A DNA stretch of 64,000 bases, taken from Calothrix sp. NIES-2100. GTDB taxonomy: Bacteria; Cyanobacteriota; Cyanobacteriia; Cyanobacteriales; Nostocaceae. The notes beneath the pieces were generated by a model that saw nothing but the letters and a program-made list of their open reading frames with translations, was not told the DNA's origin and ran no database searches. Shown piece after piece: positions 1 through 57,470 of the stretch. The stretch lies in NCBI GenBank assembly GCA_002368195.1, contig AP018178.1:5337286-5401285 (forward strand), written 5' to 3'. Numbering within the stretch: the stretch's first letter is position 1; each line of letters begins with the position of its first letter. The position numbers were made by a program, and so were the translations under genes.

Positions 1-2621
1 AATTCTCCAGGCGGAACAAATCCCCAAATCGGGTGTTGCCAGCGAGCTAGTGCTTCAAACCCAATTAGATGGTTAGTGTTAATATCAAAAATAGGTTGAT
101 AGTAAATGATAAAATCTTTGCGTTCTAGAGCTTTACGGAGTTCATTTTCTAAATTGAGTCTGATCAGTGCTTGAGTGTGCATCTGAGCATCAAATATTTT
201 ATAACAGCTTTTGCCTTGAGCCTTGGCTTGATACATGGCAATATCTGAATCTCGCAGCAAATCGGAGGCTTGATGATAATTTTTTTTGCCTAAAACAATA
301 CCGATGCTTGTGGTAATAAAAACTTCATATCCGTGGAGCATTAATGGGTTTTTAAACTCTGCTAATATCCGCTCAGAAACACCAATTGCTTCTTCAATTC
401 CAGCGATATTTTCCAGCAAAATTACAAATTCATCACCACCTAAGCGAGCCGCTAAATCCATTGCCCGAATTTTAGATTTTAGTTTTTGAGCAATAATATT
501 TAGTAGTTGATCGCCTGCTAAATGTCCTAAGCTGTCATTGATAACTTTGAACCGATCCAGATCGAGAAACAAAACTGCGAAATGATAGTTTTCGATTCGC
601 TTGGCGCGGTTAATGGCTAATTCCAGCCGTTCCATCAGCAGGTTACGGTTAGGTAAGTTAGTCAGAGCATCATGCAGGGCGTTGTAAATTAGCTGTTCTT
701 CTGCATATTTGCGATCGCTGATATCAGTAATTGTGCCAACATAACCTGTAATTTTTTCTGCTAAATCATACTCCGCAACAGCTTGGCCAAATACCCAAGA
801 CACTCTACCATCAAGGTGTTGAAATCGATATTCTAGCTGGAAAGGACGATTTTCTTGAACAGCAGAATACCACTCGGTAGCAACTTTTTCGCGATCATCG
901 TGGTGAAGTCCTTGAACCCATCCTGTGTCAGCGGCTTCTTTGGGAGTTAGTCCGCTAATCTTGCACCAGCGTTCATTGACGTAAAGACAGTTTCCTTGAG
1001 CATCGGTGCGGAAAATCCCGACTGGTGCAGCGGCTGCTAAAGAAATATAGCGTTGTTCGCTTTCCCTTAGATGTGCTTCGGTGCGATGTCGTTCTGCTAA
1101 TTCTATTTGCAGCTGTTGGTAAGCAGTGGCTTGTTGGATAGCGATCGCCAGCTGAGTAGAAAGCTGTTGGATGAGAGCAATTTCTTCCGCTTCCCACTGT
1201 CGAGGAGTTTCGCTTTCCACGACGTTCAGTAGTCCCCATAAATTATTGCCTTCGATAATTGGCATCAAAATTTTTGCCCGAGTTTGCAATGTTTCTAGTA
1301 GCTGGCGATGGCAATCACTCATCGGTGTCGTGTAGATATCACAGACAACTCGCGTCTGTTCTTTGCGATCGCCTGTTGCGCAATCCGGTGCATAGCAAGA
1401 ATCATAAATTCGTTTACCTAAGAAAGAAACATAACCATTTGCTACCGATTCTGCCACTACAACTAGGCTCCAGTCTGGTTGAAACTGCCAGATGGCTGCG
1501 CGATCGCAGTTTAAAAGCGATCGCACTTCACCAACTGTTGTGGCAAGAATATCCTGTAGGTTCAGCGAAGAACGGATTTGACTAGCAATGGTAGCAATTA
1601 ATTGTTCTCGCTCTGCTTTTACCTTGAGTATAGCTGTACGCTCTTGAACTTGCTGTTCTAATTCGGCGTTACGATTTTGCAGCAGTTCTAGTTTCTCCGC
1701 TTCTAACCGAGACACCCGATTTTCTAATACTTCGACTAAGTAACTTAACTCCACAGGGTTGAGTACTTTCAAAATACTAGTCTGAGTCACAATCCCTAAT
1801 AACTCTCCTTGGTTTCCTACTACCACTATCCGTTTAACTAAGTATTGCTGCATTATTTGTTGCACAATCAACAGAGATTCCTGAGGACTGACTGAGAAAA
1901 CTGGGGTACTCATCACGTCTTGCGCTTGCAGAACTTCAAAATCCAGTTCTAATGCGTGAAATTGCACAATATCTCGCTCGGTGACAATGCCAATTGGTAT
2001 TGGTAAAGAGTCTCGCTCTTGGACAAGTACCACCGAACTTACCTGATTTTCTGCCATCAGACGAGTAATAGCTAGCATCGACACATTAGGAGCAGCATAA
2101 ATTACTTGCGAAGACATCACATCTCTAACCAGCCGTAGTTGCAATAAGTCTATGGGACGTGATAATTGTCGCAAGCTTTCATGGGTTAGTAGTCCCACAA
2201 TTTGGTTTTGCTCATTGAGCAGAGGTAAGTGGCGGATGTGATATTGCTGAAGCAGATTAACTGCAAAGAAAAGATTGGTAAATGCAGATTGCTGCAAAGA
2301 AATGACTGCTTGTGTCATCACCTCAGCGATTTTCAGGTTTTCTAGCGATCGCTTCTGACAACTGAGGCGAACCACGTCCCTTTCCGTAAAAATACCTAAT
2401 AATTGATGGTTCTCTACTATCAATACACAGCTTGATCGCGCTTCTAGGTGTAAAGCGGCAATTTCCGTATCTGTATCTCTTGAAGACGAACACATTGCAC
2501 GAATACCACTCATCTGGGCGATCGCTTCGCTCACAGATGTATCTGGCGAAACTATCAGCGGGTTGCGAACAATTGCTGACTCCAGATCAGCTTCTGTCAA
2601 AGCAGAGGAAGATATGAACAT
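1..2621 (-). CDS. Multidomain c-di-GMP signalling protein, 5' start inside window, C-terminal EAL domain truncated by window edge. Domain order: CBS x4, coiled coil, GAF, PAS, GGDEF, EAL.
   Basis: Hand translation of the minus strand from the ATG at 2621 (MFISSSALTEADLESAIVRNPLIVS...) gives one uninterrupted frame to position 1. It contains RLGGDEFVILLE (GGDEF signature, around 440-470 on plus coords) and an EAL-domain start (DFIIYYQPIF...EALARWQHP) at the window edge. The frame is absent from the ORF track because it runs off the edge. The small plus-strand ORFs 286..489, 973..1239, 1259..1585 and 2432..2617 are shadows of it. Confidence 0.85.
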   Translation of the reverse strand, partial: MFISSSALTEADLESAIVRNPLIVSPDTSVSEAIAQMSGIRAMCSSSRDTDTEIAALHLEARSSCVLIVENHQLLGIFTERDVVRLSCQKRSLENLKIAEVMTQAVISLQQSAFTNLFFAVNLLQQYHIRHLPLLNEQNQIVGLLTHESLRQLSRPIDLLQLRLVRDVMSSQVIYAAPNVSMLAITRLMAENQVSSVVLVQERDSLPIPIGIVTERDIVQFHALELDFEVLQAQDVMSTPVFSVSPQESLLIVQQIMQQYLVKRIVVVGNQGELLGIVTQTSILKVLNPVELSYLVEVLENRVSRLEAEKLELLQNRNAELEQQVQERTAILKVKAEREQLIATIASQIRSSLNLQDILATTVGEVRSLLNCDRAAIWQFQPDWSLVVVAESVANGYVSFLGKRIYDSCYAPDCATGDRKEQTRVVCDIYTTPMSDCHRQLLETLQTRAKILMPIIEGNNLWGLLNVVESETPRQWEAEEIALIQQLSTQLAIAIQQATAYQQLQIELAERHRTEAHLRESEQRYISLAAAAPVGIFRTDAQGNCLYVNERWCKISGLTPKEAADTGWVQGLHHDDREKVATEWYSAVQENRPFQLEYRFQHLDGRVSWVFGQAVAEYDLAEKITGYVGTITDISDRKYAEEQLIYNALHDALTNLPNRNLLMERLELAINRAKRIENYHFAVLFLDLDRFKVINDSLGHLAGDQLLNIIAQKLKSKIRAMDLAARLGGDEFVILLENIAGIEEAIGVSERILAEFKNPLMLHGYEVFITTSIGIVLGKKNYHQASDLLRDSDIAMYQAKAQGKSCYKIFDAQMHTQALIRLNLENELRKALERKDFIIYYQPIFDINTNHLIGFEALARWQHPIWGFVPPGE

Positions 2622-2639
2622 TCGTGCAATAGTATTAAT

Positions 2640-3100
2640 TGTTTCTTAAGCTCTCACTTTTATCATGCCCATTGCACCTCATACTTCAAACAGTATATTT
2701 GCATATTTGCCAAATTTTTAATGGTTAATGGCCAATCGACTTTGGACTATTGGCTTTGGATAGTTGACAGTCAGCCGCAGGTGCAATCTCAGAAGCCAAA
2801 ATCAGGGCGCTCTTGCCGTTGACGAAGGCAGCCGCAATGACCATTTTCATGCTTCGGGGTTCATTGAGACTGCCTTGATCGCTCCACCCCTGAGATTAAA
2901 GCAATCACGAGTAAACATATTGAACCTCGCATGACTAGAAGTCACGCGATTCCTGCTTCAATGATCTAAGCCTGAATGACTTCAGGACTTACAAGTTCTC
3001 CACAGGCGTTTAGAGCCTCCGGGATACCCACGGCGGCTACGCAATCGGTGCTTTATTTTGAGGAACCCGTCCACCGCACTGGCTCATTAATCTCAATCCT
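2640..3100 (-). ncRNA. Candidate omega-RNA (reRNA) of TnpB, overlapping the tnpB 3' end and the right end of the element.
   Basis: By analogy with characterised TnpB systems the guide RNA derives from the 3' end of tnpB plus the RE. Structured hairpins are visible at 2927..2949 and 2971..2988. No transcript evidence is available. Confidence 0.3.
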
Positions 3101-4206
3101 TCACCCAATATGTTCAAAGCTGCATTATTGTCTCTCAAATTGTCACTACTACAATTAGGACAAGACCATTCACGCAGCTTTAAATCTTTGAGCAATGGGT
3201 TAATGAAACCACAATGATTACACGTTTGAGATGAGGGATAAAATGTCCCAACTTTCTGCACCATTCTGTCATGCCACAAAGCTTTATATTCCAGCATGGC
3301 AACGAACTTAGACCAACTAGCGTCCGAAATGCTCAAAGCTAGTTTGTGATTTTTAACCATGTTGGCAACTCGCAAATCTTCGATACAGATAATGCTGTTT
3401 TCTTTGATTAAGCGAGTTGAAAGTTTGTGCAGAAAATCGTCTCTGAGATTAGTAATTCTTTCGTAGGTACGAGCCAGCTTGATTTTCGCTTTGACTCGAT
3501 TACTACTACCTTTTACACTACGGGATAGCTTTTTATGTGCTTTACGTAACTTCCTTTTTTGAGTTCTGTAATATTTTGGATTATCTACAACTTCCCCATC
3601 GCTAGTAACGAGATAAGATTTTATGCCTAAGTCTAGCCCAATATTTTGAGTGACCCGGGGGTGTTTCTCTATCTCTGTTTCACATAAAATACTAGCAATA
3701 TATTTACCTGATGTAGTGCGAGTTACAGTAACGTTTATCAGCTTTCCAGTAATTGACTGAGACTTGTAAAACTTCACCCATCCTAGCTTTGGAAGCTTTA
3801 AACGATTCTCTATTACTTGAATGTTGCCGTTAGTAAAATTAGTTTTGTAAGACTGCTTGCACCCATACTTCTTTTTAAATTTAGGAAAACCTACACTCTT
3901 TTTGCCTTCGACTTTTTTTAAGTCAGCGAAAAAGTTTTTGTACGCTGTCTCTAAATTCTTGAGTGAGTTCTGTAGAGCAAACTTATCTACCTCTTTGAGC
4001 CATTCAATCTCTTTTTTAAGTAAAGTTAAGTGCTGACTACAAGCGTTATAGTTTAACGCTTTTTTCTCAGTGCTATATAAATTTTTTCTCAGTGCTAAAA
4101 AGCGGTTGTACACAAACCTTGCACAGCCAATAGTCTTGTTAATTAAGACTTCTTGATTGTGTGTGGGAATTAGTGTAACTTTAAACGCTTTCTGGACGTA
4201 TGACAC
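3037..4206 (-). CDS. tnpB: TnpB (OrfB_IS605) RNA-guided endonuclease-like transposase accessory protein, 389 aa.
   Basis: Full ORF. The C-terminus has the zinc-finger CNHCGF...CPNCSS typical of TnpB/OrfB. The body is a lysine/arginine-rich RuvC-like region ([11 protein letters not shown]..., ...ICIEDL...). Confidence 0.85.
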
Positions 4207-4893
4207 AAATTCTTAAATGTCTGTACTTGCAATACTATCTTAACACAAAAGTATGCTCAATATTGAGATCATAACTCATGACTATAAGTCATGAGTATGC
4301 GGCTTGAAGGCATCAAATCCCCGACTTCCTAAAAGTTGTCGGGGATCTCGTAGCCCATGATAATTAATGCGATCAACTACTAGTCCAAGATATCAAGTTC
4401 AAATAGTTTCGCTGGCAAATGAAATCAATATTGAACAATAATCTTTAACTGTGTCAGCCCAAATACAAAGAACAGCTCTCTTTGGAGTTAATGACAGCGA
4501 ATATTAGGGCTGAGAATTATACCCCAGCTTTTTATGTCTTGGCAATGTCAAACAAATTCCGCCAGATAACACGGCGCTAGTAACACAAGCAATTAGGATA
4601 ACTTGGACAACATCACTCCAATTAGTAAGCATTTTTTCTACCTCATTGTTTGAGAAGGATTTTGAGTTGGCGTTTTCTGTGCGTGTCCATAATTACTCTT
4701 TTTTTTGGAATTGGCAAGTGTTTATATCTGGGTTTTTTGAAAAATATCATTGTGAAAAAAGCACAGTATAAATACCGTATAAATCCGGTTTACAAAAATT
4801 TTTTGCCTTATGTAATACCAATTGTCTAAACGATTCCCAGATGTTAGACAAAAAATTCCTCAATCCAAAATTTAAAATTTGGTTTACCGAATT

Positions 4894-6477
4894 TTAATCT
4901 TCGCTATTTTTCACACACAGAGGAATTGTAATTCCTTCTCGCACTAAAGCATTTGTAAACTTCTTGCGGAGAATCCGCTGTATTTCCAGATGCTTACCTG
5001 GCTTAACTTTCGTCACCGTTCTTAGCAATAAATTAGATTCTCCCAGGCTCTCTACTCCATCCACTTGCGTGGCTTCAAGGACATCAGGATAATTTGCTTT
5101 TAACTGTTCTCCTACCTCCTCAATTACTTGATAAACCTGAACTAAGTTGGAGTCATAAGGAATACTAAGTTCTACAACTGCAAAAATATATTGTTTAGAG
5201 TAGTTTGCAATTGAACCAATATCGCCATTACGAATAATCTGTAATTGACCATTAGGATGTCTAATACGAGTCGTGCGCAGTTCAATAGCTTCTACAACCC
5301 CCTCTACAACTTTCTCTTCCTCTTTCCCAGCTTGGATATAATCACCGACTAGGTAATAGTTTTCAAATAGAATAAAAAAACCGCAGACTATATCATTAAC
5401 TAATGTTTGCGCTCCAAAACCTACAGCTATACCGAGAATTCCTGCACCAGCGAGTATGGGAGTCGGATTGATGTTGAGAGTATAAAGGATTGAGATGACA
5501 GCACCAAAGTAAACTAAATATTGTAAAAAACTCCGAATCAGAGGTACAAGGGTGAGCCGTCTACTTGTCTGAATATCATTTAAATTTCCGTCTTTGAATA
5601 CTATCTCTTCAACCAATAAACAAAACACCTCAAACAAGACACGACTGATGAAAATAATGCCGATTATCTGCACAGTTCGCGGCCCATAAACTGCAATATA
5701 AGCGATGAATTTGACTTGCTGAATCACTAATGTCGCCACGCAGACATAAATAACAAATTCCACACACCGTTTCAAAAAGGGAATAAGATGTCGTAGGCGA
5801 TCGTAAAATCTCAGCAGGTTGTCAGGACTGGAGTATCTTAAACTGAGAGCATCTAAGCTATCAATAATTGCCGTGATAGCTTTAGGTATCAGTAACCCGA
5901 CGGCAACGATCAGATAAATTCGCAGTAGGATGTACAAATACTCAGTTATCACTACTGGAACTTTGAGAAACTTGCTAGACAAAATAATCGCCCATAGCCA
6001 GACTCCACTGGTAATGATGTTATTTAAGTTGACAAAGAACGTATCGATACTTTCATCGTCGGCGGTATTTTGTTCAAAGTTCTTAGCGCGAATATTAGCT
6101 ACATTGAGCCAATAGCGTAAAAATTTAAGAACAATCCCTGCTAAAAATAAAATACCAATGCTTTGCGCAACACCAATTCCTAAAGTTACCCAAAATCCTA
6201 AGGGAATACTCTTAATTAAAGATAGTGTGTATTGTTGAAGGTTTTCACCTCGATAAATTAAATAACCATTAGCGCCGACAATAGCAATGCACAATACCAA
6301 ACAAATAAGTAACAAAATACCTGTAATATTCCGCCGCAGAGTTTTGATAGTTCTGCCTTCATTTTTAAGTACAGAGTTTTTCAAAATCAGCTTAAAGACC
6401 TTGTTATGAATCCAATTTACTAACAAAAAAACGAATATTACAAGCGTGGCTTCAGCAAAGATAATTAATAAATCCAT
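4894..6477 (-). CDS. Mechanosensitive ion channel, MscS family, 527 aa. It has an extended N-terminal TM region plus the MscS core.
   Basis: Multiple TM helices followed by GFGAQTLVNDIVCGFFILFE (pore-helix TM3 signature of MscS) and a C-terminal beta domain. Confidence 0.8.
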   Translation of the reverse strand: MDLLIIFAEATLVIFVFLLVNWIHNKVFKLILKNSVLKNEGRTIKTLRRNITGILLLICLVLCIAIVGANGYLIYRGENLQQYTLSLIKSIPLGFWVTLGIGVAQSIGILFLAGIVLKFLRYWLNVANIRAKNFEQNTADDESIDTFFVNLNNIITSGVWLWAIILSSKFLKVPVVITEYLYILLRIYLIVAVGLLIPKAITAIIDSLDALSLRYSSPDNLLRFYDRLRHLIPFLKRCVEFVIYVCVATLVIQQVKFIAYIAVYGPRTVQIIGIIFISRVLFEVFCLLVEEIVFKDGNLNDIQTSRRLTLVPLIRSFLQYLVYFGAVISILYTLNINPTPILAGAGILGIAVGFGAQTLVNDIVCGFFILFENYYLVGDYIQAGKEEEKVVEGVVEAIELRTTRIRHPNGQLQIIRNGDIGSIANYSKQYIFAVVELSIPYDSNLVQVYQVIEEVGEQLKANYPDVLEATQVDGVESLGESNLLLRTVTKVKPGKHLEIQRILRKKFTNALVREGITIPLCVKNSED

Positions 6478-7841: not shown

Positions 7842-9239
7842 TTGTGTCAACAAGAAACTGTTAGTACACAACCTATGGAATTAAAACAAAATAGAACAAA
7901 GAGAAAAAGAGGAGTTATCTTAACTCCTCAAGGACTAAAACAATTACAAGAGGCGATTACATCCTGCGAGATAGCGGAAAATCAAGGTGAGCGCTTAACT
8001 TTAGAGCAACTATCGCACAGGATCAATATTTCGCCTAAAACTCTGAGCCGATTGTGGTCTTTAAGTAAAGGTGTAGATCAAAAAACTCTCAAATTATGTT
8101 TTAATGCCTTTAATTTAGAATTACAAGATGAAGATTATATCTTTTTGCAAGAGGAAAATGAAACAGAAATATTAGACTTTTTTGAGGAGAATTCACCAAT
8201 ATCAAAAAAAATTCCTTTGTCATATCCTAATGGTCCTGTAGCACTGGATTCTCCCTTATATATTGAACGTCCGCCTATCGAAGAACAGGTTTATCAAGAA
8301 GTTACTCAACCTGGTTGTGTAATTCGGATTCGCTCCCCTAGACAGATGGGGAAAACCTCTTTAGTCCTGCGTTTGTTAGCTTTTGCCAAAACACAAGGGT
8401 ATCGTACTCTGAAGATAAAATGCGACCAACTTGATGAAAACTATTTAAGCGACTTAAATAAGTTGTTACGTTGTCTTTGTCGGCAAATAGCTACAGAATT
8501 GGGAACAGATCCCAATATAGATGACAAATGGGATGATGAGATTGGTTGTAAATTGAGTTGTAGCTTATACATCCAAAACTATCTACTAAAGCAGAGTCAC
8601 AGCCCGATAGTTTTAGTGTTGAGTGAAGTTGACCGCTTTTTTGAGTATCCTCACATTGGGCGGGAGTTTTTTGCTTTATTGCGTTCTTGGTGCGATGAAG
8701 CACGGCAAAATCACCATTGGCAAAAATTGAGGTTAGTAGTAGTTTACTCTACAGAACAGTATATTTCTTTAGATATTAATCGTTCGCCATTTAATATTGG
8801 ACTACCTATTCGTCTGAAGGAATTTACCCAGGAACAAGTAGAAGAATTAGCTAGGCGATACGGCCTTTACTGGACTACGAGAAAAGAATCTAGCCAGTTG
8901 ATGTCTCTCGTAGGAGGTCATCCCGCACTGATTCAACTAGCTTTGTTTTATGTTTACTCTCAACCCATGACTTTAAAAGAGTTGATAGCCGAAGCGATCG
9001 CCAACGGTGGCATTTACCGTTATCATTTATGGCTACATTGGGTAAACCTGCAAGCCAATCCTGCTCTGCTCCAGATTTATACTGAGCTAGTAGCAGCAAA
9101 ACAAGGTATAGTTCTTGATCCTGCGGATGCTTACAAACTGGAAAGTTTAGGATTAATTCACTTTGAAGGCGATCGCATCCTACCGCGTTGCGAACTCTAC
9201 CGCACTTATTTTGCCAAGCAACTATCTAAAATGGTTTAA
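7842..9239 (+). CDS. AAA-like domain (PF14516-type) ATPase with N-terminal HTH-like segment, 465 aa. The true start is possibly at 7875 (MELKQN).
   Basis: The sequence YIERPPIEEQVYQEVTQPGCVIRIRSPRQMGKTSLVLRL... parallels the N-terminus of the downstream WD40 protein (YVIRQADAQLY...FCYVFNSRQMGKSSLLHR). The N-terminal 90 aa resemble an XRE-type HTH. Confidence 0.6.
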   Translation: MCQQETVSTQPMELKQNRTKRKRGVILTPQGLKQLQEAITSCEIAENQGERLTLEQLSHRINISPKTLSRLWSLSKGVDQKTLKLCFNAFNLELQDEDYIFLQEENETEILDFFEENSPISKKIPLSYPNGPVALDSPLYIERPPIEEQVYQEVTQPGCVIRIRSPRQMGKTSLVLRLLAFAKTQGYRTLKIKCDQLDENYLSDLNKLLRCLCRQIATELGTDPNIDDKWDDEIGCKLSCSLYIQNYLLKQSHSPIVLVLSEVDRFFEYPHIGREFFALLRSWCDEARQNHHWQKLRLVVVYSTEQYISLDINRSPFNIGLPIRLKEFTQEQVEELARRYGLYWTTRKESSQLMSLVGGHPALIQLALFYVYSQPMTLKELIAEAIANGGIYRYHLWLHWVNLQANPALLQIYTELVAAKQGIVLDPADAYKLESLGLIHFEGDRILPRCELYRTYFAKQLSKMV

Positions 9240-9790
9240 CCAAATCTATCCGCTAGGGTATTTGTCATCCGGAAATTTCTTTGATTGTGAAATCATATTG
9301 GCCTTCGCAGATGTTTAGTCCGGAATTCTCGGAGTAAAAATTTATCTGAGAATAGTCTTACTTAAGTAGGGCGACGCACTAAAACTACGGGCATAAATCG
9401 TTATTTATGATTTCTTACAAAGTCTGATCTAAAGAAGCCCTGGATCAGACTTTGCGCTTTGTTACTTGTCATTTGTCATTTCCCAGAAGGAGCAGATAAC
9501 TCTTAACAGGGAACGGGGGATAATGCGTGAATTTTGAATTGTTTATCCCCCTTGGCTTCCTCTGTCCTAGTTCCCCTTGTCTCACTTGTCTCCCTTATCT
9601 TTATATTCCCAGTCACAACCAAATAAATATCAACTTAAGTTACTATTTAAGTTACCTATAAGTCACAGGCTTTATCTTTGTAAATTGAGAAATTTTTTCA
9701 GAAAAATTGCTGTTTACTCATCTCATTATCATCGGATTTTTTATATTAAAATGCAAGGACAGTTAAGACATTTAAGCTAAAAATCAAATG

Positions 9791-9888
9791 GACATTTAAG
9801 ACATTTAAGACATTTAAGACATTTAAGACATTTAAGACATTTAAGACATTTAAGACATTTAAGATTTAAGACAGTTAAAACACTTAAG
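9791..9888. repeat. Tandem repeat of the 9-bp unit GACATTTAA, about 8 perfect copies plus degenerate copies.
   Basis: Read directly: gacatttaa repeated 9791..9862, decaying into gatttaagacagttaaaacacttaag. Confidence 0.9.
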
Positions 9889-10078
9889 TGAAAAATTATG
9901 TAAATAATATACTAGTTGCTGCAACTGACAATAATTGAACAATATTTAACGATAAGTGAATGTTTGTCTACACATCAAACTTTGCGGGGAAATATATATC
10001 CTAGATTGCATCGCCACAAATTTTGCACAAATTATCTAGTATGAAGTTAATATAAGAATTTGATATCAAATATCTGAT

Positions 10079-13000
10079 ATGAAATACCAAGTTGGTGGTA
10101 GTATACCTAGTGATGATCCGAGCTACGTTATTCGTCAAGCGGACGCACAACTTTATACGAGCTTAAAAGCAGGCGATTTTTGTTACGTCTTTAATTCTCG
10201 CCAAATGGGTAAATCATCGCTGTTGCATCGCACAAAAGAGCGTTTGATGCAAGAAGGTAATAGCTGCATTTATATAGATGTAACACGCTTGGGTAGTGAA
10301 GATACAAAGACCGAACAATGGTATAAAGGAATTATTATCTGTCTTTTTTACGGCTTAAATTTAGCGGAAAAAGTTAATTTTAAAGAGTGGTGGGAGTTGC
10401 AAACAGGACTTTCACCTGTACAGAAGCTAAATCAGTTTGTCGAAGAGGTATTACTTACCTGTGAACAAAGTGAGCGAATCGTTATTTTTATTGATGAAAT
10501 TGATAGTTTATTGAGTTTGAGTTTTTCGGTTAGTGACTTTTTTGCTTGGATTCGTCATTGCTATAACCAACGCGCCCACGACCCAAAATTTCAACGTTTA
10601 GGATTTGCAGTGTTTGGGGTAGCCAGTCCATCTGACTTAATTGCTGATAAACGCCGCACACCTTTCAACATTGGCACAGCAATTGAGTTATACGGGTTTA
10701 AACTAGAGGAAGCTACCCCATTACTCCCAGGTTTAGAATCAGTAGTTAGCCAACCTCAAATAATACTACAGAAGATTATGGACTGGACTGCTGGACAACC
10801 TTTTCTGACGCAAAAAATTTGTCAGTTAGTTGTGCAGACCGCCAGAGAAACACCGCAGAAAAAAATTGATTTACCGCCAGCTACAGAAGGGTATTGGATC
10901 GAGCAACTGGTAAAAAAGCAGATTATTCAACAGTGGAAAGCCAAGGACGATCCAGAACACCTGCGCACAATTCGCGATCGCCTCCTGTACAACGAACAAC
11001 GCGCCGGGAGGTTGTTAGGTATTTATCAGCAGGTGTTACAAGCTGAAGCTGGTAAACCTCTTGTAGCGATCGATGATAGTCGAGAACAAAAAGAACTATT
11101 GTTATCTGGGTTAGTTGAAAAAAACAACGGCTATCTCAAAATTAAAAATCCCATCTATCGCCATGTTTTCAATTCTGAATGGGTGGAAAGACAATTAGAC
11201 AACCTGCGTCCTTACTCGCAAATCTTCAATGGTTGGGTAGCATCAAATTATCAAGATGAGTCACGATTACTGCGGGGAAAGGCTTTAAAAGATGCTCAAA
11301 ATTGGTCGCTGGGTAAAAGTTTAAGTGATTTGGATTATAAATTTTTTGCTGCTAGTCAAGAATACGAAAAGCGCGAAATTCAAACAGCATTAGAAGCAGC
11401 ACGAGCCAAAGAAATAGAAGCACGACTAGCACAAGAGAAAAAAAGTGCTAAAGTGCAAAGATTGTTGCTAATTGGCATGTGTATTAAGTTGTTCATTTCT
11501 ATAGGTTTGGGATGCGGAATTTACATTTTGTATCGCCAATCCCAGAAAAGCGAAACTCAAGCCAAAACTAGCGAAATTCAAGCCTTGGTATCGGCTTCTG
11601 AAGGCATGTTCGCCTCAAATCGTAGATTAGATGCCCTGATACAAGCAATTAAAGCTAAACAGAAACTACAACAACTAGAAAAACCAAACATCAATATTGA
11701 GCGTCAGGTAAACAATGTATTACAACAAGCTGTTTATGGGGCAGATGAATACAATCGATTTTCTGGTCATACAGCAGCTGTGATGTCAGTAGATATTAGT
11801 CCTGATAGTTCTTTAATTGCTTCCGCCAGTATAGATAAAACCATCACGATTTGGCAGCGTGATGGTACAGCCGTAGCAACTCTCAAAGGTCATCAGGGAG
11901 CAATTAGATGTGTTAAATTTAGTCCGGACGGTCAAACACTAGCCTCGGCGAGTGAGGATGGTACTATTAAACTGTGGAAACAAGAAAGTACAGACGGCCA
12001 GTGGCACATTTATAAAACATTCAAAGGTCACACTGCTTCCGTTTGGGGAGTCGCCTTTAGTCCTGATGGTCAATTTTTAGCCTCTACTGGTTGGGATAGA
12101 ACGGTAAGATTTTGGCAGCAAGATGGTAAACTGCTAAAAACATTTGCAGGTTACAAAGGATTTTGGGGAGTAGCTTTTAGTCCCGATGGTCAAACTGTTG
12201 CGGCGGCAAATCTAGATGGGACTGTAAAACTTTGGCAACGAGACAACACAGGCTGGCAAAACCCCAAAATTCTACAAATTCTCCAAGGACATAAAGCTTG
12301 GGTTGAGGGAGTCGCTTTTAGTCCTGACGGTCAAACCATTGCTTCTGCGAGTGAAGATAAAACAGTGAAACTGTGGCGGCGAGACAGTAAATATGGTAGC
12401 TATCGACTGGATAAAACTTTGCAAGGTCATACTGCTGGGATTGCAGGAGTCGCCTTTAGTCCTGATGGTCAGACTATTGTCTCTGCCAGTCTCGACAAAA
12501 CTATGAAACTTTGGAACATTGATGGTACGGAATTGAGAACGCTCAGAGGACATAGTGCTTCTGTTTGGGGAGTAAGTTTCAGTCCTGATGGCAGCTTTAT
12601 TGCTTCGGCGGGTGCAGAAAATCTTGTCAGACTCTGGAAAAGTCAAAATCCATTCCATAACAGTGTAATTGCCCACAATGCGGGGATTTGGTCAATAGCT
12701 ATTACCGCTGACAGTTCCACCATTGGCACAGCCAGTCACGAAAATGTTGCCAAATTGTGGAGTCCTCAAGGTAAATTGCTCAAAACTTTGACTGAAACAA
12801 GTGTCATGTTCGATGTTTCATTCAGTGAAGATGGCAAGTTAGTGGCTCTTGCTGCCTACGATGATACAGTAAAAATCAAGCGGCGAGACGGTACTAATGT
12901 TGCTAGTCGCAAAGATACCCACGGTATCATCACAGGAGCGAAATTGAGTCCCGATGGTCAAGCGATCGCCATTGCTAATGTTGACAAAATGGCTCAATTA

Positions 13001-13636
13001 TGGTCATTAAAAAATCCGGCATTGCAGTTTCTCAAAGGACATCAGGCAGAAGTCTGGCAAGTAGTCTTTAGTCCCGATGGTAAAATGGTGGCGAGCGCCA
13101 GTGCTGATGGTACTGCCAAGGTGTGGACACTAGACGGGAAGTTGCGCTCAACCCTCGTCGGACATGAGGCGGCTGTGTGGATAGTTGGCTTTAGTCCCGA
13201 CAGTAAAATGGTAGCTACTGGCAGCGGTGACAATACCATGAAGTTGTGGACGGTGGATGGTAAGTTATTGCAAACTTTCATTGGTCACACAGGTGCAATT
13301 TGGGGAGTAGGGTTTAGTCCCGATGGCAAAATCATTGCTTCTGGTAGTGTGGATGCTACCATCAAACTTTGGAAGCTGGATGGTACGGAAATAACCACCC
13401 TTAGAGGTCATACTGCGGCTATTCGCAAAATTGCTATCAGCCGCGACGGCACTTTTCTGGCCTCAGGGGGTGATGATAACACACTGATGATCTGGAATTT
13501 ACCGCGTATTCTCAACTTAAATCCACTTCCTGATGCTTGCACTATTGTCCAGGACTATTTGAAAACTAACACCACAGTGGAAAAAGGCGATCACTCTTTA
13601 TGCCAATTCCATAACAAAGCAAAAGCATCGAGTTAG
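10079..13636 (+). CDS. STAND-type signalling protein: AAA-like NTPase domain, coiled-coil/TM linker, then about 14 WD40 repeats, 1185 aa.
   Basis: N-terminal P-loop-like NSRQMGKSSLL. A TM-like segment LLLIGMCIKLFISIGLGCGIYILY. Repeated GH..xVxxVxFSPDGxxxASAS.DxTxKLW units run from about 11760 to 13500. Confidence 0.85.
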   Translation: MKYQVGGSIPSDDPSYVIRQADAQLYTSLKAGDFCYVFNSRQMGKSSLLHRTKERLMQEGNSCIYIDVTRLGSEDTKTEQWYKGIIICLFYGLNLAEKVNFKEWWELQTGLSPVQKLNQFVEEVLLTCEQSERIVIFIDEIDSLLSLSFSVSDFFAWIRHCYNQRAHDPKFQRLGFAVFGVASPSDLIADKRRTPFNIGTAIELYGFKLEEATPLLPGLESVVSQPQIILQKIMDWTAGQPFLTQKICQLVVQTARETPQKKIDLPPATEGYWIEQLVKKQIIQQWKAKDDPEHLRTIRDRLLYNEQRAGRLLGIYQQVLQAEAGKPLVAIDDSREQKELLLSGLVEKNNGYLKIKNPIYRHVFNSEWVERQLDNLRPYSQIFNGWVASNYQDESRLLRGKALKDAQNWSLGKSLSDLDYKFFAASQEYEKREIQTALEAARAKEIEARLAQEKKSAKVQRLLLIGMCIKLFISIGLGCGIYILYRQSQKSETQAKTSEIQALVSASEGMFASNRRLDALIQAIKAKQKLQQLEKPNINIERQVNNVLQQAVYGADEYNRFSGHTAAVMSVDISPDSSLIASASIDKTITIWQRDGTAVATLKGHQGAIRCVKFSPDGQTLASASEDGTIKLWKQESTDGQWHIYKTFKGHTASVWGVAFSPDGQFLASTGWDRTVRFWQQDGKLLKTFAGYKGFWGVAFSPDGQTVAAANLDGTVKLWQRDNTGWQNPKILQILQGHKAWVEGVAFSPDGQTIASASEDKTVKLWRRDSKYGSYRLDKTLQGHTAGIAGVAFSPDGQTIVSASLDKTMKLWNIDGTELRTLRGHSASVWGVSFSPDGSFIASAGAENLVRLWKSQNPFHNSVIAHNAGIWSIAITADSSTIGTASHENVAKLWSPQGKLLKTLTETSVMFDVSFSEDGKLVALAAYDDTVKIKRRDGTNVASRKDTHGIITGAKLSPDGQAIAIANVDKMAQLWSLKNPALQFLKGHQAEVWQVVFSPDGKMVASASADGTAKVWTLDGKLRSTLVGHEAAVWIVGFSPDSKMVATGSGDNTMKLWTVDGKLLQTFIGHTGAIWGVGFSPDGKIIASGSVDATIKLWKLDGTEITTLRGHTAAIRKIAISRDGTFLASGGDDNTLMIWNLPRILNLNPLPDACTIVQDYLKTNTTVEKGDHSLCQFHNKAKASS

Positions 13637-17623: not shown

Positions 17624-17640
17624 AGAGGCGCAAAAAATCG

Positions 17641-17800
17641 AAGTTGCTCACTGAGCGTAAAGCCTCCGGCATAGCTTCTCCTGTCGGAGAGGCTGCGCCA
17701 ACGCTTAGCGCGTAGCGTCTCGCAGAGAAGTCGAAGTCAGCCAAGTTGCTCACTGAGCGAAGTCGAAGTGAGCGAAGTCGAAGTCAGCCAAGTCTAAATG
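17641..17800. repeat. Copy of a short dispersed intergenic repeat family (MITE/REP-like) plus GAAGTCGAAGT tandem units.
   Basis: The core ggcatagcttctcctgtcggagaggctgcgcc and flanking cgcttagcgcgtagcg recur at 54340..54480 and 60060..60180 (partly inverted). Confidence 0.7.
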
Positions 17801-22606: not shown

Positions 22607-22829
22607 ATCACAACAAATACTGAATTTTCTTGAGCTTTCTTGAGAATTTTTTACTAGAGGAATCCGGTTTTTTGAATAATTAACTTAATCCTGAAGTTTA
22701 AGTTTAGGGTTAGCAATGCCTACCCTATCTTGGGTTTGTAACCTATAGCAATACCTAAATTTCAAAAAATAAATGTGAATCCTCTAGTGAATTTTGGTTA
22801 AATATTTACCTTTAAGGGTGTAAAAAATC

Positions 22830-25800
22830 ATGAGTAATGATCTGTTGATAATCGACCTCGAAGAGGTATTAAAAAGAGCAATAAATAACATTAGCGAATT
22901 CTTTACATCTGCTGAGTATGCGCAGAAAATGAATTTAGCATTTGGAGAAAAGTGGGATCAAGAGAAAGCCAAGAAGGTAATTGCGGGAATCATCAACAAT
23001 ACAAACCTCCCAGAAATTCAAGTAGTTGACTCTTTAGAAATAAATGGTGGACAAGGAGCTTTTGGGAGTTTTAACCAGACAATTTATTTATCAAAAGCGC
23101 TTTTAAATGATGCAGTCAAAAGTGTTGATGTCCTGATAGAAGAACTAGGGCATTTTATAGATTCGCAGATAAATATTCAAGATGCACAGGGCGATGAAGG
23201 AGCAATTTTTGCCGCAATCGTCCAAGGTAAAGAGCTAACTCAAACTCAACTCTTAGGGTTGAAAAGTGAGAACGATACAACAAATGTCATCATCAATGGA
23301 GAAGCCAGAACATTAGAGCTAGCAGCTACCTACGGTAATATTAGCCTCGATGGTAACTTAAGTGATTGGACATCAGCAGAGAGATTAGATTTTCTTCCTG
23401 GAACAGGAATACCAGGATACGAAATCTATGGAAAGTATGCAGGAGATGCTTATGTATTCGCCTTGAAATCGGATACCCAAGCGATAGGTGCGGGCACAAC
23501 ATTCTGGCTAAATACAGACAGAAATGCGAGTACAGGTTATCAAATATTTGGTCAGACTGGAGTAGGAGGAGCCGAATATAACGTTGATTTCTTTACAGAT
23601 AATGTACCCTCTTTATACACAGGAGGAGCCGGAGCCAATTTGGTCGGTGGTTCTTTAAACTATGCCTATGGTACTAATAATCAAATAGTTGAATTCGCCG
23701 TTCCAATAGCACTTTTAAATGGAGCGCCACAAGCAATTGATGTTTTGACGGATATTAATAACCAAACATTTTTACCGTCTAATTATTCATCTCAAAAATA
23801 TACGGTTTCTGTTTTACCACCAAGAACAGACTTTAGTAAGAAGGTTGGGATAGTATTTTCGGAAACTACAGCGAAAAATTTCTTTCAAGATAAAGCCTAT
23901 ACCCAACTCTTCCTGTCGATGCAAAGCCAAGCAATGCAGGCGGGTATTCCCTTTGATATTCTCACAGAGAATGACTTAACAGACCTCAGCAAGGTTGTTA
24001 ATTATGATGCGCTGATATTTCCTTCTTTCCGAAATGTACCTCTGGCGAAGCTGGATGCAATTCAAAATACACTCACACAAGCCGTCTACAAATATAATAT
24101 TGGACTGATTACAGCTGGAGACTTTTTAACTAACGATGAAAATAATAATGCTTTAGCCGGAGATTCCTACATCCGGATGAAGCAGTTGTTGAATGTGACT
24201 AGAACTGGTGGCGGTGGGCCAGTCAATGGTGTTCTCAACGCTGAGGATATTGCTCATCCAGTGATGCAAGGTTATTCTACGGACGAGGCGATTCGTAGTT
24301 ATAACGGCATCTTTTTTAATAGCTATGGTGATGCAGATAGTACAGACAATAAAACACCCATAGTTCTCGCAGATTTTTTGGTAAATGGGCAGAAAAATAA
24401 TGCTGTACTAGCAACACAAACCGGTGGTAGAAACGTCCATTTTGCCACTGAAGGGTTCATGGGAGATAACAATTTACTGTGGAAAGCATTGCAATGGGCT
24501 GTTCTTGATAACAAACCCAAAGTAGCGTTAAACATGAGCCGGGATGCAAGTATATTTGTTTCGCGGACTGATATGGATCAGTCTCAGGAAGCTGAGGATG
24601 TGAATCCGGTGGGAACTACTCCAGGGATTTACGATCGCCTGCTGCCGACTCTGACACAATGGAAAAACGACTATAATTTTGTCGGGTCATACTACATCAA
24701 TGTGGGTAACAATCCAGCAAATGGGCAAGTGACTGACTGGACTGTCTCCAAGCCTTACTATAATCAAATCCTGGCTCTACAAAACGAAATTGGTACCCAC
24801 TCTTATACTCACCCCGAAGACACAAATCAGAACACCTATAAAGAAAATAATGCGTCGGCTCCTATAACTCCCACTCTCACTGATGCACAATATGCTACTA
24901 AGTTGGAGTTTGAATTTAACCAATCACAATTAGTCATTGAGCAACAGTTAGGAATTCAAGTTTCAGGCGCAGCGATTCCCGGCGCACCAGAAGGTTTAGG
25001 AGTTTCCCAAGAGCTTCAGAAATACCTATCCTATGTTTCTGGTGGTTATGCAAGTGTAGGTGCAGGTTATCCCAGTGCTTTTGGCTTTATGTTTCCGGGT
25101 AAGGATTATGTCTATTTAGCCCCGAACATGTCCTTTGATTTTTCGCTGGTAGAGTTTCGCAAGTTAACAACACAGCAAGCGGAAGCAGAATGGCTTAAAG
25201 AATATACTGGTTTAACCAATCATGCAGCCCAAGCTATCATTCATTTTCCTTGGCATGATTATGGCCCTACAGCGTGGGATACTAGTCCAGAGGATAATCT
25301 ACCCTCGCCTTACAATCAGGCAATGTTTACTAATTTCCTTGCCAGAGCATACAAGGATAATACAGAGTTTATTACCGCGTTAGATTTAAGCGATCGCATC
25401 AGAACTTTTGAGAAATCACAATTAACTATTGATTATCCCAGTGCAAATACTATTACTGCTACTGTTGCAGGAGTTACTAATGTAGGGACTTTTGGTTTAA
25501 ATATCGATCCAACTCAAACCATTAAAAGTGTGAATGGTTGGTATGCCTACGATAAAGATACGGTATTCTTACCAGCTAATGGCGGTCAATTTACAATCAA
25601 TTTGGGAACTCTTCAAGATGATGTGACCCATATTACTGACCTACCAATGCGTGGCGAATTGAAGTCTGTTATCGGTAATGGCACTGATTTAGAATTTACA
25701 TTCTTTGGTGAGGGTAAAGTTGTCTTAGATTTAAAAAATCCCACTGGATTGAATATTGTCACTCAAGGTGCAAGTAGTACGACTCTCAACGGTGAGATTC

Positions 25801-27092
25801 TCGAGATGAATTTTAGCGGTCTGAGTCTACACACTGGCAAAGTGACATTAGCTCCAGATACTCCCCCAACAGTAGCTAACCCAATTGCCGATGTCAGCGT
25901 ACTTGAGGATGCAGCAGATACTGTAATTAATTTAAGTAATGTCTTCACAGATATTGATAACGCTGTTACTGGCATTACTAAGACAGTTAAAGCTAATAGC
26001 AATAGTGGCTTAGTTAATGCCAGCATTGTTAACAATAATCTGACTCTGGATTATCTACCGAATCAATTTGGGACTGCGACAATTACTATTACTGGTACAT
26101 CTAATGGCAAAACTGTTGATGATACCTTTACAGTCAACGTTGCGCCTGTGGATGATGCGCCGACTGTGGTTACTCCAATTGCTGATGTTATTGTTAATCA
26201 AGGTTCTGCTAACACTAATATTAATTTAGGTAGTGTCTTTACTGATATAGATAACGATGCTGCGGCGATTACTAAGTCAATTGTCACCAATAGCAATAAC
26301 ACCTTGGTGAATGCCTCAATTGTGGGTAATTCTTTAACCTTGCAATATTTACCCAATCAATTTGGTAATGCGCAAGTGACTGTGCGTGGTACATCTGGCG
26401 GTAAAACAGTTGATGATACTTTTAGTGTCACTGTTAACCCTGTGGGCAATATCATTAATGGTACTGCTGCAAACAACTCTCTTTTAGGTACTTCAGGTAG
26501 AGATATCATTAGCGGATTTGGTGGTAATGACACCATAGATCCTAGAGAGGGTAATGATGTTGTTTATGGTGGCGATGGTAACGATTATGTTTTGGGAAGT
26601 TTAGGGGATGATTTAATTTATGGGGACGCTGGTAACGATACGTTATTCGGTGGCTCAAATAACGATACCCTTACTGGTGGTAAAAATAGTGACCGATTAG
26701 TTGGTGACTCAGGAATTGACACTCTGATTGGTGTCAACCCCAATGATACTTTAGCTGGAGCAGGAGAAATTGATACCTTAACTGGTGGTACTCAAGCTGA
26801 TTTATTTGTTCTCGGTGATAGAACTAAGGCTTACTACAATGATGGTAATAATCTTAGCTCTGGCACGGGTGACTATGCTCTAATTACAGACTTCAGTACC
26901 TTTGAGGGAGATAAAATCCAACTTTTTGGTAGCGCCGCCAACTATAGAATCAATAATCTTTCATTTAGTTTATCATTGGGCTTCCATAGCGCGCTTTACT
27001 TAAGAACTGGCGGTCAGGATGAGCTAATAGGAGCGATTCAAGGATTTAATAGCCTGAGTCTTACTAGTAGCAGTTTCAGCTATGTGAGCTAA
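22830..27092 (+). CDS. Giant secreted multidomain protein, paralogue 1 (1420 aa). Conserved N-terminal module, NodB-like metal-dependent deacetylase/esterase motif, Ig/FN-like segment, 2 cadherin-like (DDAP-type) repeats, RTX nonapeptide Ca-binding repeats, conserved C-terminal domain.
   Basis: [12 protein letters not shown] (H-S-x-x-H NodB motif 2). Repeats [18 protein letters not shown]...[13 protein letters not shown]. GGxGNDxLxG-type repeats GFGGNDTIDPREGNDVVYGGDGNDYVLG. No N-terminal signal peptide (T1SS-type substrate expected). Confidence 0.8.
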   Translation: MSNDLLIIDLEEVLKRAINNISEFFTSAEYAQKMNLAFGEKWDQEKAKKVIAGIINNTNLPEIQVVDSLEINGGQGAFGSFNQTIYLSKALLNDAVKSVDVLIEELGHFIDSQINIQDAQGDEGAIFAAIVQGKELTQTQLLGLKSENDTTNVIINGEARTLELAATYGNISLDGNLSDWTSAERLDFLPGTGIPGYEIYGKYAGDAYVFALKSDTQAIGAGTTFWLNTDRNASTGYQIFGQTGVGGAEYNVDFFTDNVPSLYTGGAGANLVGGSLNYAYGTNNQIVEFAVPIALLNGAPQAIDVLTDINNQTFLPSNYSSQKYTVSVLPPRTDFSKKVGIVFSETTAKNFFQDKAYTQLFLSMQSQAMQAGIPFDILTENDLTDLSKVVNYDALIFPSFRNVPLAKLDAIQNTLTQAVYKYNIGLITAGDFLTNDENNNALAGDSYIRMKQLLNVTRTGGGGPVNGVLNAEDIAHPVMQGYSTDEAIRSYNGIFFNSYGDADSTDNKTPIVLADFLVNGQKNNAVLATQTGGRNVHFATEGFMGDNNLLWKALQWAVLDNKPKVALNMSRDASIFVSRTDMDQSQEAEDVNPVGTTPGIYDRLLPTLTQWKNDYNFVGSYYINVGNNPANGQVTDWTVSKPYYNQILALQNEIGTHSYTHPEDTNQNTYKENNASAPITPTLTDAQYATKLEFEFNQSQLVIEQQLGIQVSGAAIPGAPEGLGVSQELQKYLSYVSGGYASVGAGYPSAFGFMFPGKDYVYLAPNMSFDFSLVEFRKLTTQQAEAEWLKEYTGLTNHAAQAIIHFPWHDYGPTAWDTSPEDNLPSPYNQAMFTNFLARAYKDNTEFITALDLSDRIRTFEKSQLTIDYPSANTITATVAGVTNVGTFGLNIDPTQTIKSVNGWYAYDKDTVFLPANGGQFTINLGTLQDDVTHITDLPMRGELKSVIGNGTDLEFTFFGEGKVVLDLKNPTGLNIVTQGASSTTLNGEILEMNFSGLSLHTGKVTLAPDTPPTVANPIADVSVLEDAADTVINLSNVFTDIDNAVTGITKTVKANSNSGLVNASIVNNNLTLDYLPNQFGTATITITGTSNGKTVDDTFTVNVAPVDDAPTVVTPIADVIVNQGSANTNINLGSVFTDIDNDAAAITKSIVTNSNNTLVNASIVGNSLTLQYLPNQFGNAQVTVRGTSGGKTVDDTFSVTVNPVGNIINGTAANNSLLGTSGRDIISGFGGNDTIDPREGNDVVYGGDGNDYVLGSLGDDLIYGDAGNDTLFGGSNNDTLTGGKNSDRLVGDSGIDTLIGVNPNDTLAGAGEIDTLTGGTQADLFVLGDRTKAYYNDGNNLSSGTGDYALITDFSTFEGDKIQLFGSAANYRINNLSFSLSLGFHSALYLRTGGQDELIGAIQGFNSLSLTSSSFSYVS

Positions 27093-27122
27093 ATAATTAC
27101 TAGCCTTTAGTTTGCGTGATTA

Positions 27123-27170
27123 ACTCATACAGAGGAAGACACTTCCATACAAGTGTACCTCTGTTGAGTC
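27123..27170 (+). terminator. Conserved stem-loop downstream of paralogue 1 (stem actcaTAcagagg / cctctgttgagt).
   Basis: Seen directly. Homologous hairpins follow paralogues 2 and 3. Confidence 0.4.
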
Positions 27171-27347
27171 AGCTAAAAAAGAAAGTGCAAGTCACAAAAA
27201 GTAAGTATATAAAATTAATATATTTTTGATTTTATATATACAAAAATCATCTTTTATTTGCCGGAATTAACTACAGATTTTTGTATTATTAATTATTGGA
27301 TATTAGTCAGTTTTGGAAAATTACATATCTTAAAAAAATAAAAACTT

Positions 27348-32801: not shown

Positions 32802-32830
32802 CAACTTATAGCATTGAGATTGGTTGATTA

Positions 32831-32861
32831 ACTCAACAGAGAAACTTTACCTCTGTTGAGT
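32831..32861 (+). terminator. Conserved stem-loop downstream of paralogue 2 (perfect 11-bp stem actcaacagag / ctctgttgagt, 9-nt loop).
   Basis: Seen directly. There is no U-tract, so it may be an RNA stability or processing element rather than an intrinsic terminator. Confidence 0.4.
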
Positions 32862-33053
32862 CCACTAAAACAAAGTTGCACACAAGCTAGCAATTGCACC
32901 GATCGCAGTCAGCAGCGAAAATCAAGATTTTGCAATTGTATACCTACCCAAAAACATTTGGGATTTCTCTGAATCAACCGTAGTTTACTGTGTTATTAAA
33001 TATTGCACAGTAGTTATTTTTTTTACTTTATATGTTTTAAAAGTGAAATTATT

Positions 33054-49497: not shown

Positions 49498-49500
49498 GGA

Positions 49501-54339: not shown

Positions 54340-54480
54340 GAGTTGAGCGTAAAGCCTTCTCTACGAGAGGCTTCGCCAACGGCATAGCTTCTCCTGTCGG
54401 AGAGGCTGCGCCCTAAGCGAAGCTATGCCGTAGGCTTTACGCTTAGCGCGTAGCGGACGCACCAAAAGTCGAAACTCGCC
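54340..54480. repeat. Second copy of the dispersed intergenic repeat family (see 17641..17800).
   Basis: ggcatagcttctcctgtcggagaggctgcgccctaagcg plus cttagcgcgtagcggacgcacc. The latter is also partly found at 44878..44897. Confidence 0.7.
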
Positions 54481-57468: not shown

Positions 57469-57470
57469 TT

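Follow-up and report, generated by a model that had tools for sequence, protein, structure and literature searches.

A probable non-autonomous, tnpB-only insertion sequence of the ISDra2 sub-type, with a predicted omega-RNA, beside a GGDEF-EAL gene of Calothrix sp. NIES-2100

The 64-kb stretch of Calothrix sp. NIES-2100 analysed here (64,000 nucleotides of contig AP018178.1, referred to as the window) carries on its minus strand, at 2920..4311, what we read with a probability of roughly 0.9 as a non-autonomous insertion sequence (IS) of the IS200/IS605 family. It is of the tnpB-only (IS1341-type) form, belongs to the same sub-type as ISDra2 of Deinococcus, and encodes the protein TnpB and an omega-RNA. 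Its boundaries, its target motif, the integrity of its protein, the structure and covariation of its RNA and the purifying selection on its gene are observed in the alignments described below. The initial annotation of this DNA had already recognised a tnpB-only IS200/IS605 element next to a large GGDEF-EAL gene, and this assignment is borne out by the profile scores of the protein, the absence of tnpA and ends that match those of ISDra2.

A scan of one genome per species returned 74 loci with relatives of the element, almost all of them in Nostocales, at 73-91% protein identity. When window positions 2300..4900 were compared with these loci by blastn, similarity stopped at 2917-2920 and at 4316-4318 in nearly all copies that have the respective end. 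The junctions themselves could be compared for 57 right ends (RE) and 43 left ends (LE) from other genomes, which together represent about 60 related copies. TTGAT stands directly before the LE in 39 of the 43, and the conserved LE that follows it, (T/G)(T/C)CTNCAAGCCGCACACTCGTGACTT..AGTCATGAGTTA, places the left boundary at 4311. On the right, the copies read ...AGGAATC-hairpin-GAGGTTCAA and then pass into unrelated DNA, which places the boundary at 2920; GGTTCAA is present in 55 of the 57, and the 16-mers past this point comprise 54 distinct sequences with a mean pairwise identity of 0.29. Because homology ends sharply at these two positions and the flanks of the copies are unrelated, we delimit the element as 2920..4311. 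The resulting 1392 bp lie inside the range of other tnpB-only copies (1342-1441 bp). For the discreteness of the insertion we rely on the unrelated flanks of about 60 independent copies, no empty site having been found. No direct repeat is shared by the DNA to the left (...GGGGATTTGAT) and to the right (TATGTTTAC...), i.e. the element lacks a target-site duplication. No second copy or fragment of the IS was found within the window, and the closest copy found elsewhere has about 86% DNA identity.

The same boundaries emerge from a comparison with the experimental substrates of ISDra2, whose target and transposon-associated motif (TAM) is TTGAT (PMC8612924; PMC2806898). Pasternak et al. (2010) used an LE reading ...TTGAT/GCTTGAGGGGCGCACACTCGTGACTTCAGTCATGAGTTA and an RE reading CTGCGAAGTGAGAATCACGCGACTTTAGTCGTGTGAGGTTCAA/flank, where the slash marks the joint (PMC2806898). 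The LE 39-mer is identical to the window LE in 32 of 41 aligned columns and the RE 43-mer to the window RE in 33 of 44, with the joints falling exactly on 4311 and 2920. Both elements share the RE terminus ...GAGGTTCAA, the pentanucleotide TTGAT and near-identical LE and RE hairpins, the counterpart of the LE hairpin in ISDra2 being ACTCGTGACTTCAGTCATGAGT. Judged by sequence, the window copy and ISDra2 thus agree in the target pentanucleotide, in the two putative hairpins for TnpA binding and in the context of RE cleavage. The window copy has subterminal imperfect palindromes at both ends and no terminal inverted repeats, as expected of the ISDra2 sub-type within IS200/IS605. Subterminal hairpins had been proposed before, and they are indeed present, at 4296..4274 and 2949..2927; a further hairpin at 4344..4319, which falls within the originally drawn limits, is part of the flank and occurs in no other copy.

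Conservation of these ends reaches beyond the cyanobacteria. Seven plasmids of Clostridium botulinum/sporogenes match the final 33 nt of the RE of ISDra2 (AGAATCACGCGACTTTAGTCGTGTGAGGTTCAA) at 100% identity, and some Nostoc copies (locus L001 and others) have its last 30 nt unchanged. From these identical terminal sequences it follows that ISDra2-type ends are almost unchanged across Deinococcota, Firmicutes and Cyanobacteria. Further, four loci from different Nostoc assemblies (L031, L032, L053, L055) have an identical RE flank, GGTTCAACTTTTATCC, in which the final 7 nt of the RE recur; this reflects either one orthologous insertion or a site arising from aberrant RE cleavage.

The TnpB open reading frame (ORF) had been judged intact, with a zinc finger and a RuvC-like region, and closer analysis of its 389-residue product agrees. 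Three Pfam domains score above their gathering scores: HTH_OrfB_IS605 (PF12323, residues 1-49), OrfB_IS605 (PF01385, 173-286) and Cas12f1-like_TNB (PF07282, 298-366). The protein reaches 508.2 bits with the NCBIfam model NF038281, 'IS200/IS605 family element RNA-guided endonuclease TnpB' (cut-off 425), and 333 with NF040570 (cut-off 100); with the IS607_TnpB profile it remains at 201.6, under the cut-off of 350. The best matches in the Protein Data Bank are the ISDra2 TnpB structures 8h1j and 8bf8/8ex9/8exa (E ~1e-122, residues 5-371), and over this structured core the identity to ISDra2 TnpB is 57% (207 of 364 aligned positions). The residues expected to catalyse cleavage, bind zinc and contact the TAM are the same in both proteins. 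In the phmmer alignment to 8bf8/8h1j, the RuvC triad of the window protein is intact, with GLD192LG, CIE276DL and LRD359NNA on D191, E278 and D361 of ISDra2; its absence had been named beforehand as an outcome that would speak against the assignment. The zinc-finger TNB domain is present, with CNHC (329) and CPNC (349) on CHDC and CPNC of ISDra2, and the two ISDra2 residues in contact with the TTGAT TAM, Q80 and T123, have Q79 and T125 as their aligned counterparts (PMC11061315). The GTG start is the same codon as the TTG start of 23 loci of the same sub-family.

The ratio of nonsynonymous to synonymous substitution rates (dN/dS) of tnpB against ten relatives is 0.08-0.12, and among TnpB columns that are at least 95% conserved, the window copy has a single private substitution, E42N. 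The gene is under purifying selection, and its product is, by analogy with ISDra2, apparently a functional RuvC-type nuclease. An insert of about 50 nt (3091..3040), which the window copy has in common only with L001 and L026, makes the ORF stop at the start of the omega-RNA scaffold, whereas in ISDra2 and in most related copies it reads on into the scaffold. The junction between the TnpB core (...GEGLR) and the scaffold (alignment A1, columns 134-218) is a hot spot for inserts that decide where the tnpB ORF stops: eight other copies have a different one of about 70 nt with a GC-rich hairpin (CTGCTGGGGTCTCCCCAGCAG), and most copies have none.

An omega-RNA (also called reRNA) had been suspected at the 3' end of tnpB, and no other non-coding stretch of the family proved as conserved as 3039..2920. 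RNAalifold, applied to 49 distinct copies (alignment A2), yields five helices with 32 pairs, nine of which show changes on both sides. Standard pairs occupy 98.8% of the 1567 pair cells, a value reached in 0 of 500 shuffles. When the pairing partners were slid by 1-3 columns as a control, only 30-39% remained paired, and the cells with changes on both sides fell from 121 to 2-5. Covariation is found in helix 1 (3038..3028 with 3024..3014), helix 2 (3006..3002 with 2956..2952), helix 4 (2986..2981 with 2976..2971) and helix 5 (2949..2940 with 2936..2927). Helix 5, with ten pairs of which four show compensatory changes, would double as the DNA hairpin recognised by TnpA; helices 1-4 covary although they have no known role in DNA, and we therefore take the conserved structure to be one of RNA. 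The window copy deviates from the 90% consensus of the RE and omega-RNA only at 2962, and its own fold has z = -2.7 against shuffles.

The scaffold of ISDra2 is 116 nt long, comprises four stems and a pseudoknot and precedes a guide of 16 nt (PMC10097598; PMC8612924); ours is 120 nt long. The two were compared over ISDra2 positions -43..-1, given by the RE oligonucleotide in PMC2806898. Over this range the 3' part of the scaffold (GAAG-stem 2 strand-AA-stem 4-GAGGUUCAA) is collinear with ISDra2 and ends in the identical GAGGUUCAA. The counterpart of helix 2 is stem 2 of ISDra2, with CCUG/CAGG in place of CUCA/UGAG, and that of helix 5 is stem 4. The 5' half folds into the long covarying hairpin 3038..3014, for which we found no one-to-one placement on stem 1 and the pseudoknot of ISDra2.

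The stretch 3006..2950 also bears some resemblance to RAGATH-18, in its closing stem and in the consensus on either side (CCUGUGGAG ... UGAAGCAGGAA); both are TnpB guide-RNA scaffolds. RAGATH-18 is the reRNA core of IS607 TnpBs and has been reported with these only (PMC11061315). We rejected membership in the family (RF03064), as the score of 24.1 bits lies below the gathering score of 44.9 (E = 0.2), leaving a resemblance only.

The reRNA of ISDra2 takes its last ~16 nt from flanking DNA (PMC8612924). Placed in the same way, by position after the RE, the guide is predicted at 2919..2904 and the 3' end of the RNA near 2904. The initial annotation had derived the guide from 2640..3036 plus the flank and expected an RNA ending near 2650. 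This changes with the mapped RE: 3039..2920 becomes the scaffold, and 2640..2919 would contribute no more than its first 16 nt. A search of the window for TTGAT followed by the guide, with up to three mismatches, returned only the occupied site itself, which has TTCAA in place of TTGAT.

Table 1. Coordinates of the insertion sequence, its parts and its neighbours in the window.
Feature	Positions	Strand	Length	Remarks
Whole IS	2920..4311	minus	1392 bp	blastn against 74 related loci and end alignments
Left end (LE)	4207..4311	minus	105 nt	cleavage site to tnpB start codon; conserved in related loci
LE subterminal hairpin	4274..4296	minus		ACTCATGACT-TAT-AGTCATGAGT; presumed TnpA binding site; also in 43 related copies
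Target pentanucleotide TTGAT, also TAM	4312..4316	minus		outside element, directly 5' of LE; 39/43 copies; same motif as ISDra2
tnpB coding sequence	3037..4206	minus	389 residues	GTG start; D192, E276, D359; CxxC at 329 and 349; Q79, T125
Omega-RNA (reRNA) scaffold	2920..3039	minus	120 nt	tnpB stop codon to right end; alignment A2 of 49 copies
RE subterminal hairpin	2927..2949	minus		presumed TnpA site on DNA and last omega-RNA stem (helix 5, ISDra2 stem 4)
Predicted guide	2904..2919	minus	16 nt	TATGTTTACTCGTGAT; flanking chromosomal DNA; placed by position after RE, as in ISDra2
Spacer, native flanking DNA	2622..2919	minus	298 bp	RE to GGDEF-EAL start codon; outside element
CBS-CBS-GAF-PAS-GGDEF-EAL gene, 5' part	1..2621	minus	873 codons	runs off window; Pfam: CBS x3, GAF, PAS, GGDEF and only start of EAL domain
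MscS-type channel gene, upstream neighbour	4894..6477			Pfam

Transposase is missing from the element, since the 105 nt between the end of the LE and the start of tnpB leave too little room for tnpA. Autonomous relatives (L011, L019, L026, L036, L038, L046, L049) carry an IS200-type TnpA between LE and tnpB. These TnpA-bearing copies are 1720-1891 bp long, with a TnpA ORF of about 117-132 codons, and their TnpA scores 127 bits against NF033573, 'IS200/IS605 family transposase' (cut-off 55). Without tnpA, the window copy is therefore a non-autonomous IS1341-type form, and its movement would depend on a TnpA from another part of the genome, of which the window covers 64 kb. ISDra2 differs in this respect, having an overlapping tnpA, and also in its host, as the window comes from a mesophilic filamentous cyanobacterium.

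Transcription, processing, nuclease activity, TAM specificity and homing are modelled on ISDra2, for which transposition by TnpA 3' of TTGAT via single-stranded intermediates has been shown experimentally (PMC2806898; PMC8612924). By its family, the element would have been inserted as a single-stranded circle 3' of TTGAT by a Y1 (HUH) TnpA acting in trans, without target duplication, into the intergenic region between a 42-codon ORF and the CBS-GAF-PAS-GGDEF-EAL gene. A transcript would run through the 3' end of tnpB and over the RE, and its processing should yield an omega-RNA, consisting of the scaffold 3039..2920, possibly with a dispensable 5' extension, and about 16 nt of flank (2919..2904) as guide. 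ISDra2 can do without the 5' part of the RNA that lies within tnpB, and also without the last 33 residues of the protein, the equivalent of the C-terminal tail that is affected here by the insert (PMC10097598; PMC8612924). The TnpB-omega-RNA complex would, as in ISDra2, recognise and cut TTGAT followed by TATGTTTACTCGTGAT. This combination should exist nowhere but at the donor joint, formed by excision of the element and rejoining of its flanks. The occupied site would be spared because TTCAA, not TTGAT, precedes the sequence that matches the guide. The expected donor joint is GGGGATTTGAT/TATGTTTACTCG (also given as GGGGATTTGAT/TATGTTTACTCGTGATTG) and the expected RE-LE circle junction ...GAGGTTCAA/GCCTTCAAGCC.... 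Repair of the cut joint by recombination with a sister copy would then restore the element, a homing or retention step for which we draw on the ISDra2 work (PMC8612924; PMC10690162). The corrected coordinates, with the RNA 3' end near 2904 and the donor joint TTGAT/TATGTTTACTCGTGAT, permit direct tests of this scheme.

In the search for the ancestral site, neither the MscS-like neighbour nor TnpB turned out to have its exact protein on record, and the best match to the N-terminal 400 residues of the GGDEF-EAL protein was 63% identical. Several results weigh against the reading given so far. No orthologous empty site, which should read ...GGGGATTTGATTATGTTTACTCG..., was found among the related genomes, and metagenome scans for the reconstructed site (GTCGGGGATTTGATTATGTTTACTCG) and for a 24-mer of the right flank returned nothing. 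Contig L075, the closest relative (MscS 91% identical), shares the 42-codon ORF and loses homology at window position 4455, about 140 bp before the IS; the corresponding locus of Nostoc minutum (MscS 83% identical) has another downstream gene. A tblastn search with the TnpA of a relative had no match anywhere in the window. Two substitutions in the LE are private to the window copy, 4297 (C to T, beside the foot of the hairpin) and 4292 (G to A). Both positions are conserved in 95-97% of the copies and in ISDra2. Through the change at 4292 the hairpin has an A-T pair where other copies usually have a G.T mismatch, and the loss of this mismatch may impair recognition by TnpA. In the scaffold, 31 of 32 pairs are retained and one, C2995/A2962, is broken. 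Finally, a candidate pseudoknot between GAA 2998..2996 and UUC 2924..2922 has two invariant strands, for which covariation is uninformative, and it is located differently from the pseudoknot partner of ISDra2 (-105..-103).

Some of these results would also fit a true ISDra2-like IS that is no longer mobile: TnpB and omega-RNA would perhaps still be made, there would be no excision and no target for the nuclease, and the copy would drift. Such a stranded copy would explain why there is neither a tnpA in the element nor a TnpA homologue in the window and why the LE has changed at two conserved positions, and a nearest copy at about 86% DNA identity gives no sign of recent spread. However, a single private change in the conserved columns of TnpB, a dN/dS of about 0.1, and an RE and omega-RNA that depart from consensus at one position speak against it. 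The A-T variant of the LE hairpin also occurs in two other copies, L036 and L050, and with 64 kb of the genome in view, a source of TnpA or sister copies may lie elsewhere. We consider the loss of mobility somewhat unlikely, and of the alternatives discussed here it is the likeliest. A domesticated, nuclease-independent TnpB, which like TldR would act as an RNA-guided regulator of the neighbouring cyclic di-GMP (c-di-GMP) gene, is in contrast extremely improbable. It would account for the position of the element beside a signalling gene and for their common orientation, and for nothing else; the catalytic D-E-D triad is intact, as are the two ends of the transposon and its TTGAT target, the guide matches only its own flank in the window, with no TTGAT-adjacent match near the GGDEF-EAL promoter, and the same element is found beside unrelated genes in about 60 other loci.

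The limits drawn in the initial annotation, 2640..4350 (about 1710 bp), imply a larger element with hairpins near these positions and a right end of about 400 nt. The perfect hairpin CCCCGAC...GTCGGGG at 4344..4319 and the higher GC content of 2770-2900 relative to its surroundings could be taken in this sense. Yet none of the ~60 related copies shares sequence past 2920 or past the TTGAT at 4316, the tnpB-only relatives keep to the length range given above, and the joints of the published ISDra2 substrates coincide exactly with 4311 and 2920. The end alignments and the match to ISDra2 thus refute the wider limits, for which we see next to no chance. The distance between the RE and the start codon of the GGDEF-EAL gene, previously given as about 30-400 bp, becomes a fixed 298 bp.

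This distance bears on the proposal that the insertion sits in the promoter or leader of the GGDEF-EAL gene and may alter its expression. The gene, with its GGDEF and EAL domains, is as originally described: the start codon is the ATG at 2621, with an in-frame stop upstream at 2648..2646, and Pfam identifies the product as a CBS-GAF-PAS-GGDEF-EAL protein. With the element removed, the gap between this ATG and the 42-codon ORF (4632..4504) would be 490 bp. An effect on expression is possible, via read-through from tnpB and the omega-RNA or via separation from an upstream promoter, and is without support in our results; we regard it as doubtful. In its favour, tnpB, the omega-RNA and the GGDEF-EAL gene share the minus strand, and nothing resembling a terminator was detected from the tnpB stop codon (3037) to 2621. 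A strong sigma-70-like match (11/12, TTGCCA-18-TATAAT) stands upstream of the element at 4545..4516 on the minus strand, inside the 3' part of the 42-codon ORF; it is directed toward the IS and the GGDEF-EAL gene and is conserved in L075. However, the 298 bp of native upstream DNA that remain are enough for a promoter and leader of the gene's own, and a single weak match to a promoter lies within them, at 2721..2692. Across the region, promoter-like sequences are no commoner than in shuffles (9 found against 7.0 +/- 2.4 expected), the hairpin at 4344..4319 lies between the upstream match and the element and could terminate transcription, and there is no orthologous empty site for comparison.

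A bolder view is that the IS has been co-opted as a transcriptional module of the c-di-GMP gene. Transcription from a host promoter at 4545..4516, or from the LE, would then extend over tnpB, the omega-RNA and the leader of the GGDEF-EAL gene, and processing by TnpB at the omega-RNA would set the amount of read-through mRNA that reaches the signalling gene. In a modest version, the element would provide an active mesophilic nuclease with a TTGAT TAM that could be used as an editor in cyanobacteria. We think this view improbable.

As an ISDra2-type IS, the element has close relatives on record. IS1341-type copies with the same layout of LE, tnpB and RE are found on plasmid alpha of Nostoc sp. 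PCC 7120 (NC_003276.1, 266191..267414) and in Nostoc sp. ATCC 53789, with DNA identities of 84-86% over 88-97% of the element. Both are annotated in RefSeq as 'IS200/IS605 family element RNA-guided endonuclease TnpB', and the former is 86% identical. Relative to these, the window copy has another insertion site, another guide and its own LE substitutions. The classical Anabaena element IS891 is presumably also a member of the IS1341-type group. Family, mechanism and even close copies of the element have thus been described or annotated already, and our result is an ordinary annotation with corrected coordinates. It matters little beyond providing the exact boundaries, TAM and guide for one more copy of a widespread and annotated IS family of Nostocales. 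This family is a close relative of ISDra2, the best-studied TnpB element, and its ~50 natural scaffold variants could inform the engineering of ISDra2-type omega-RNAs. Any effect of the insertion on the c-di-GMP enzyme is a local, strain-specific question.

The DNA on either side of the element has features of its own. Directly 5' of TTGAT, the flank at 4319..4344 (minus strand) forms the GC-rich hairpin mentioned above, perfect over 7 bp with a loop of 12 nt (CCCCGAC-12 nt-GTCGGGG); it may terminate transcription of the 42-codon ORF or present the target in single-stranded form. This ORF (4504..4632, minus strand) encodes a hydrophobic peptide (MLTNWSDVVQVILIACVTSAVLSGGICLTLPRHKKLGYNSQP) and is conserved and called as a gene in the metagenome contig L075 (4013-4141). 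From about 4455 leftwards, as compared with L075 4192-5119, the stretch may be specific to the strain. On the other side of the IS, the spacer 2622..2919 has no similarity to any related copy, fetched locus or other part of the window. Within it, 2724..2849 (minus strand) is GC-rich (~53% as against ~35-40% nearby) and contains a 41-codon ORF (MKMVIAAAFVNGKSALILASEIAPAADCQLSKANSPKSIGH) with no match in the fetched loci.

Several repeats stand out in the remainder of the window. Three tandem copies of a 4.5-5.7-kb module, 74-93% identical to each other, occupy 22800..36600 and are typical of a multi-module gene for a non-ribosomal peptide synthetase or polyketide synthase. Downstream of an ORF at 7842..9239, the region 11750..13390 is an array of units of 41-74 nt (TTTAGTCC(T/C)GATGGTCAA...) at a spacing of about 123-141 nt, typical of a gene for a WD40-repeat protein. 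Short tandem repeats are located at 9782..9896, 49500-50660, 52100-52190, 57468-57516, 58880-58944 and 60173-60232. They include a 9-nt repeat, GACATTTAA, of about ten units and heptamers such as TTGTCAA, TGGGGCA and CCCCTCA, and arrays of this kind are characteristic of intergenic regions in heterocystous cyanobacteria. Finally, a palindromic repeat of about 60-100 nt occurs three times (17640..17737, 54353..54455, 60060..60161), in both orientations and with 85-97% complementarity, and may be an element similar to miniature inverted-repeat transposable elements or to repetitive extragenic palindromes.

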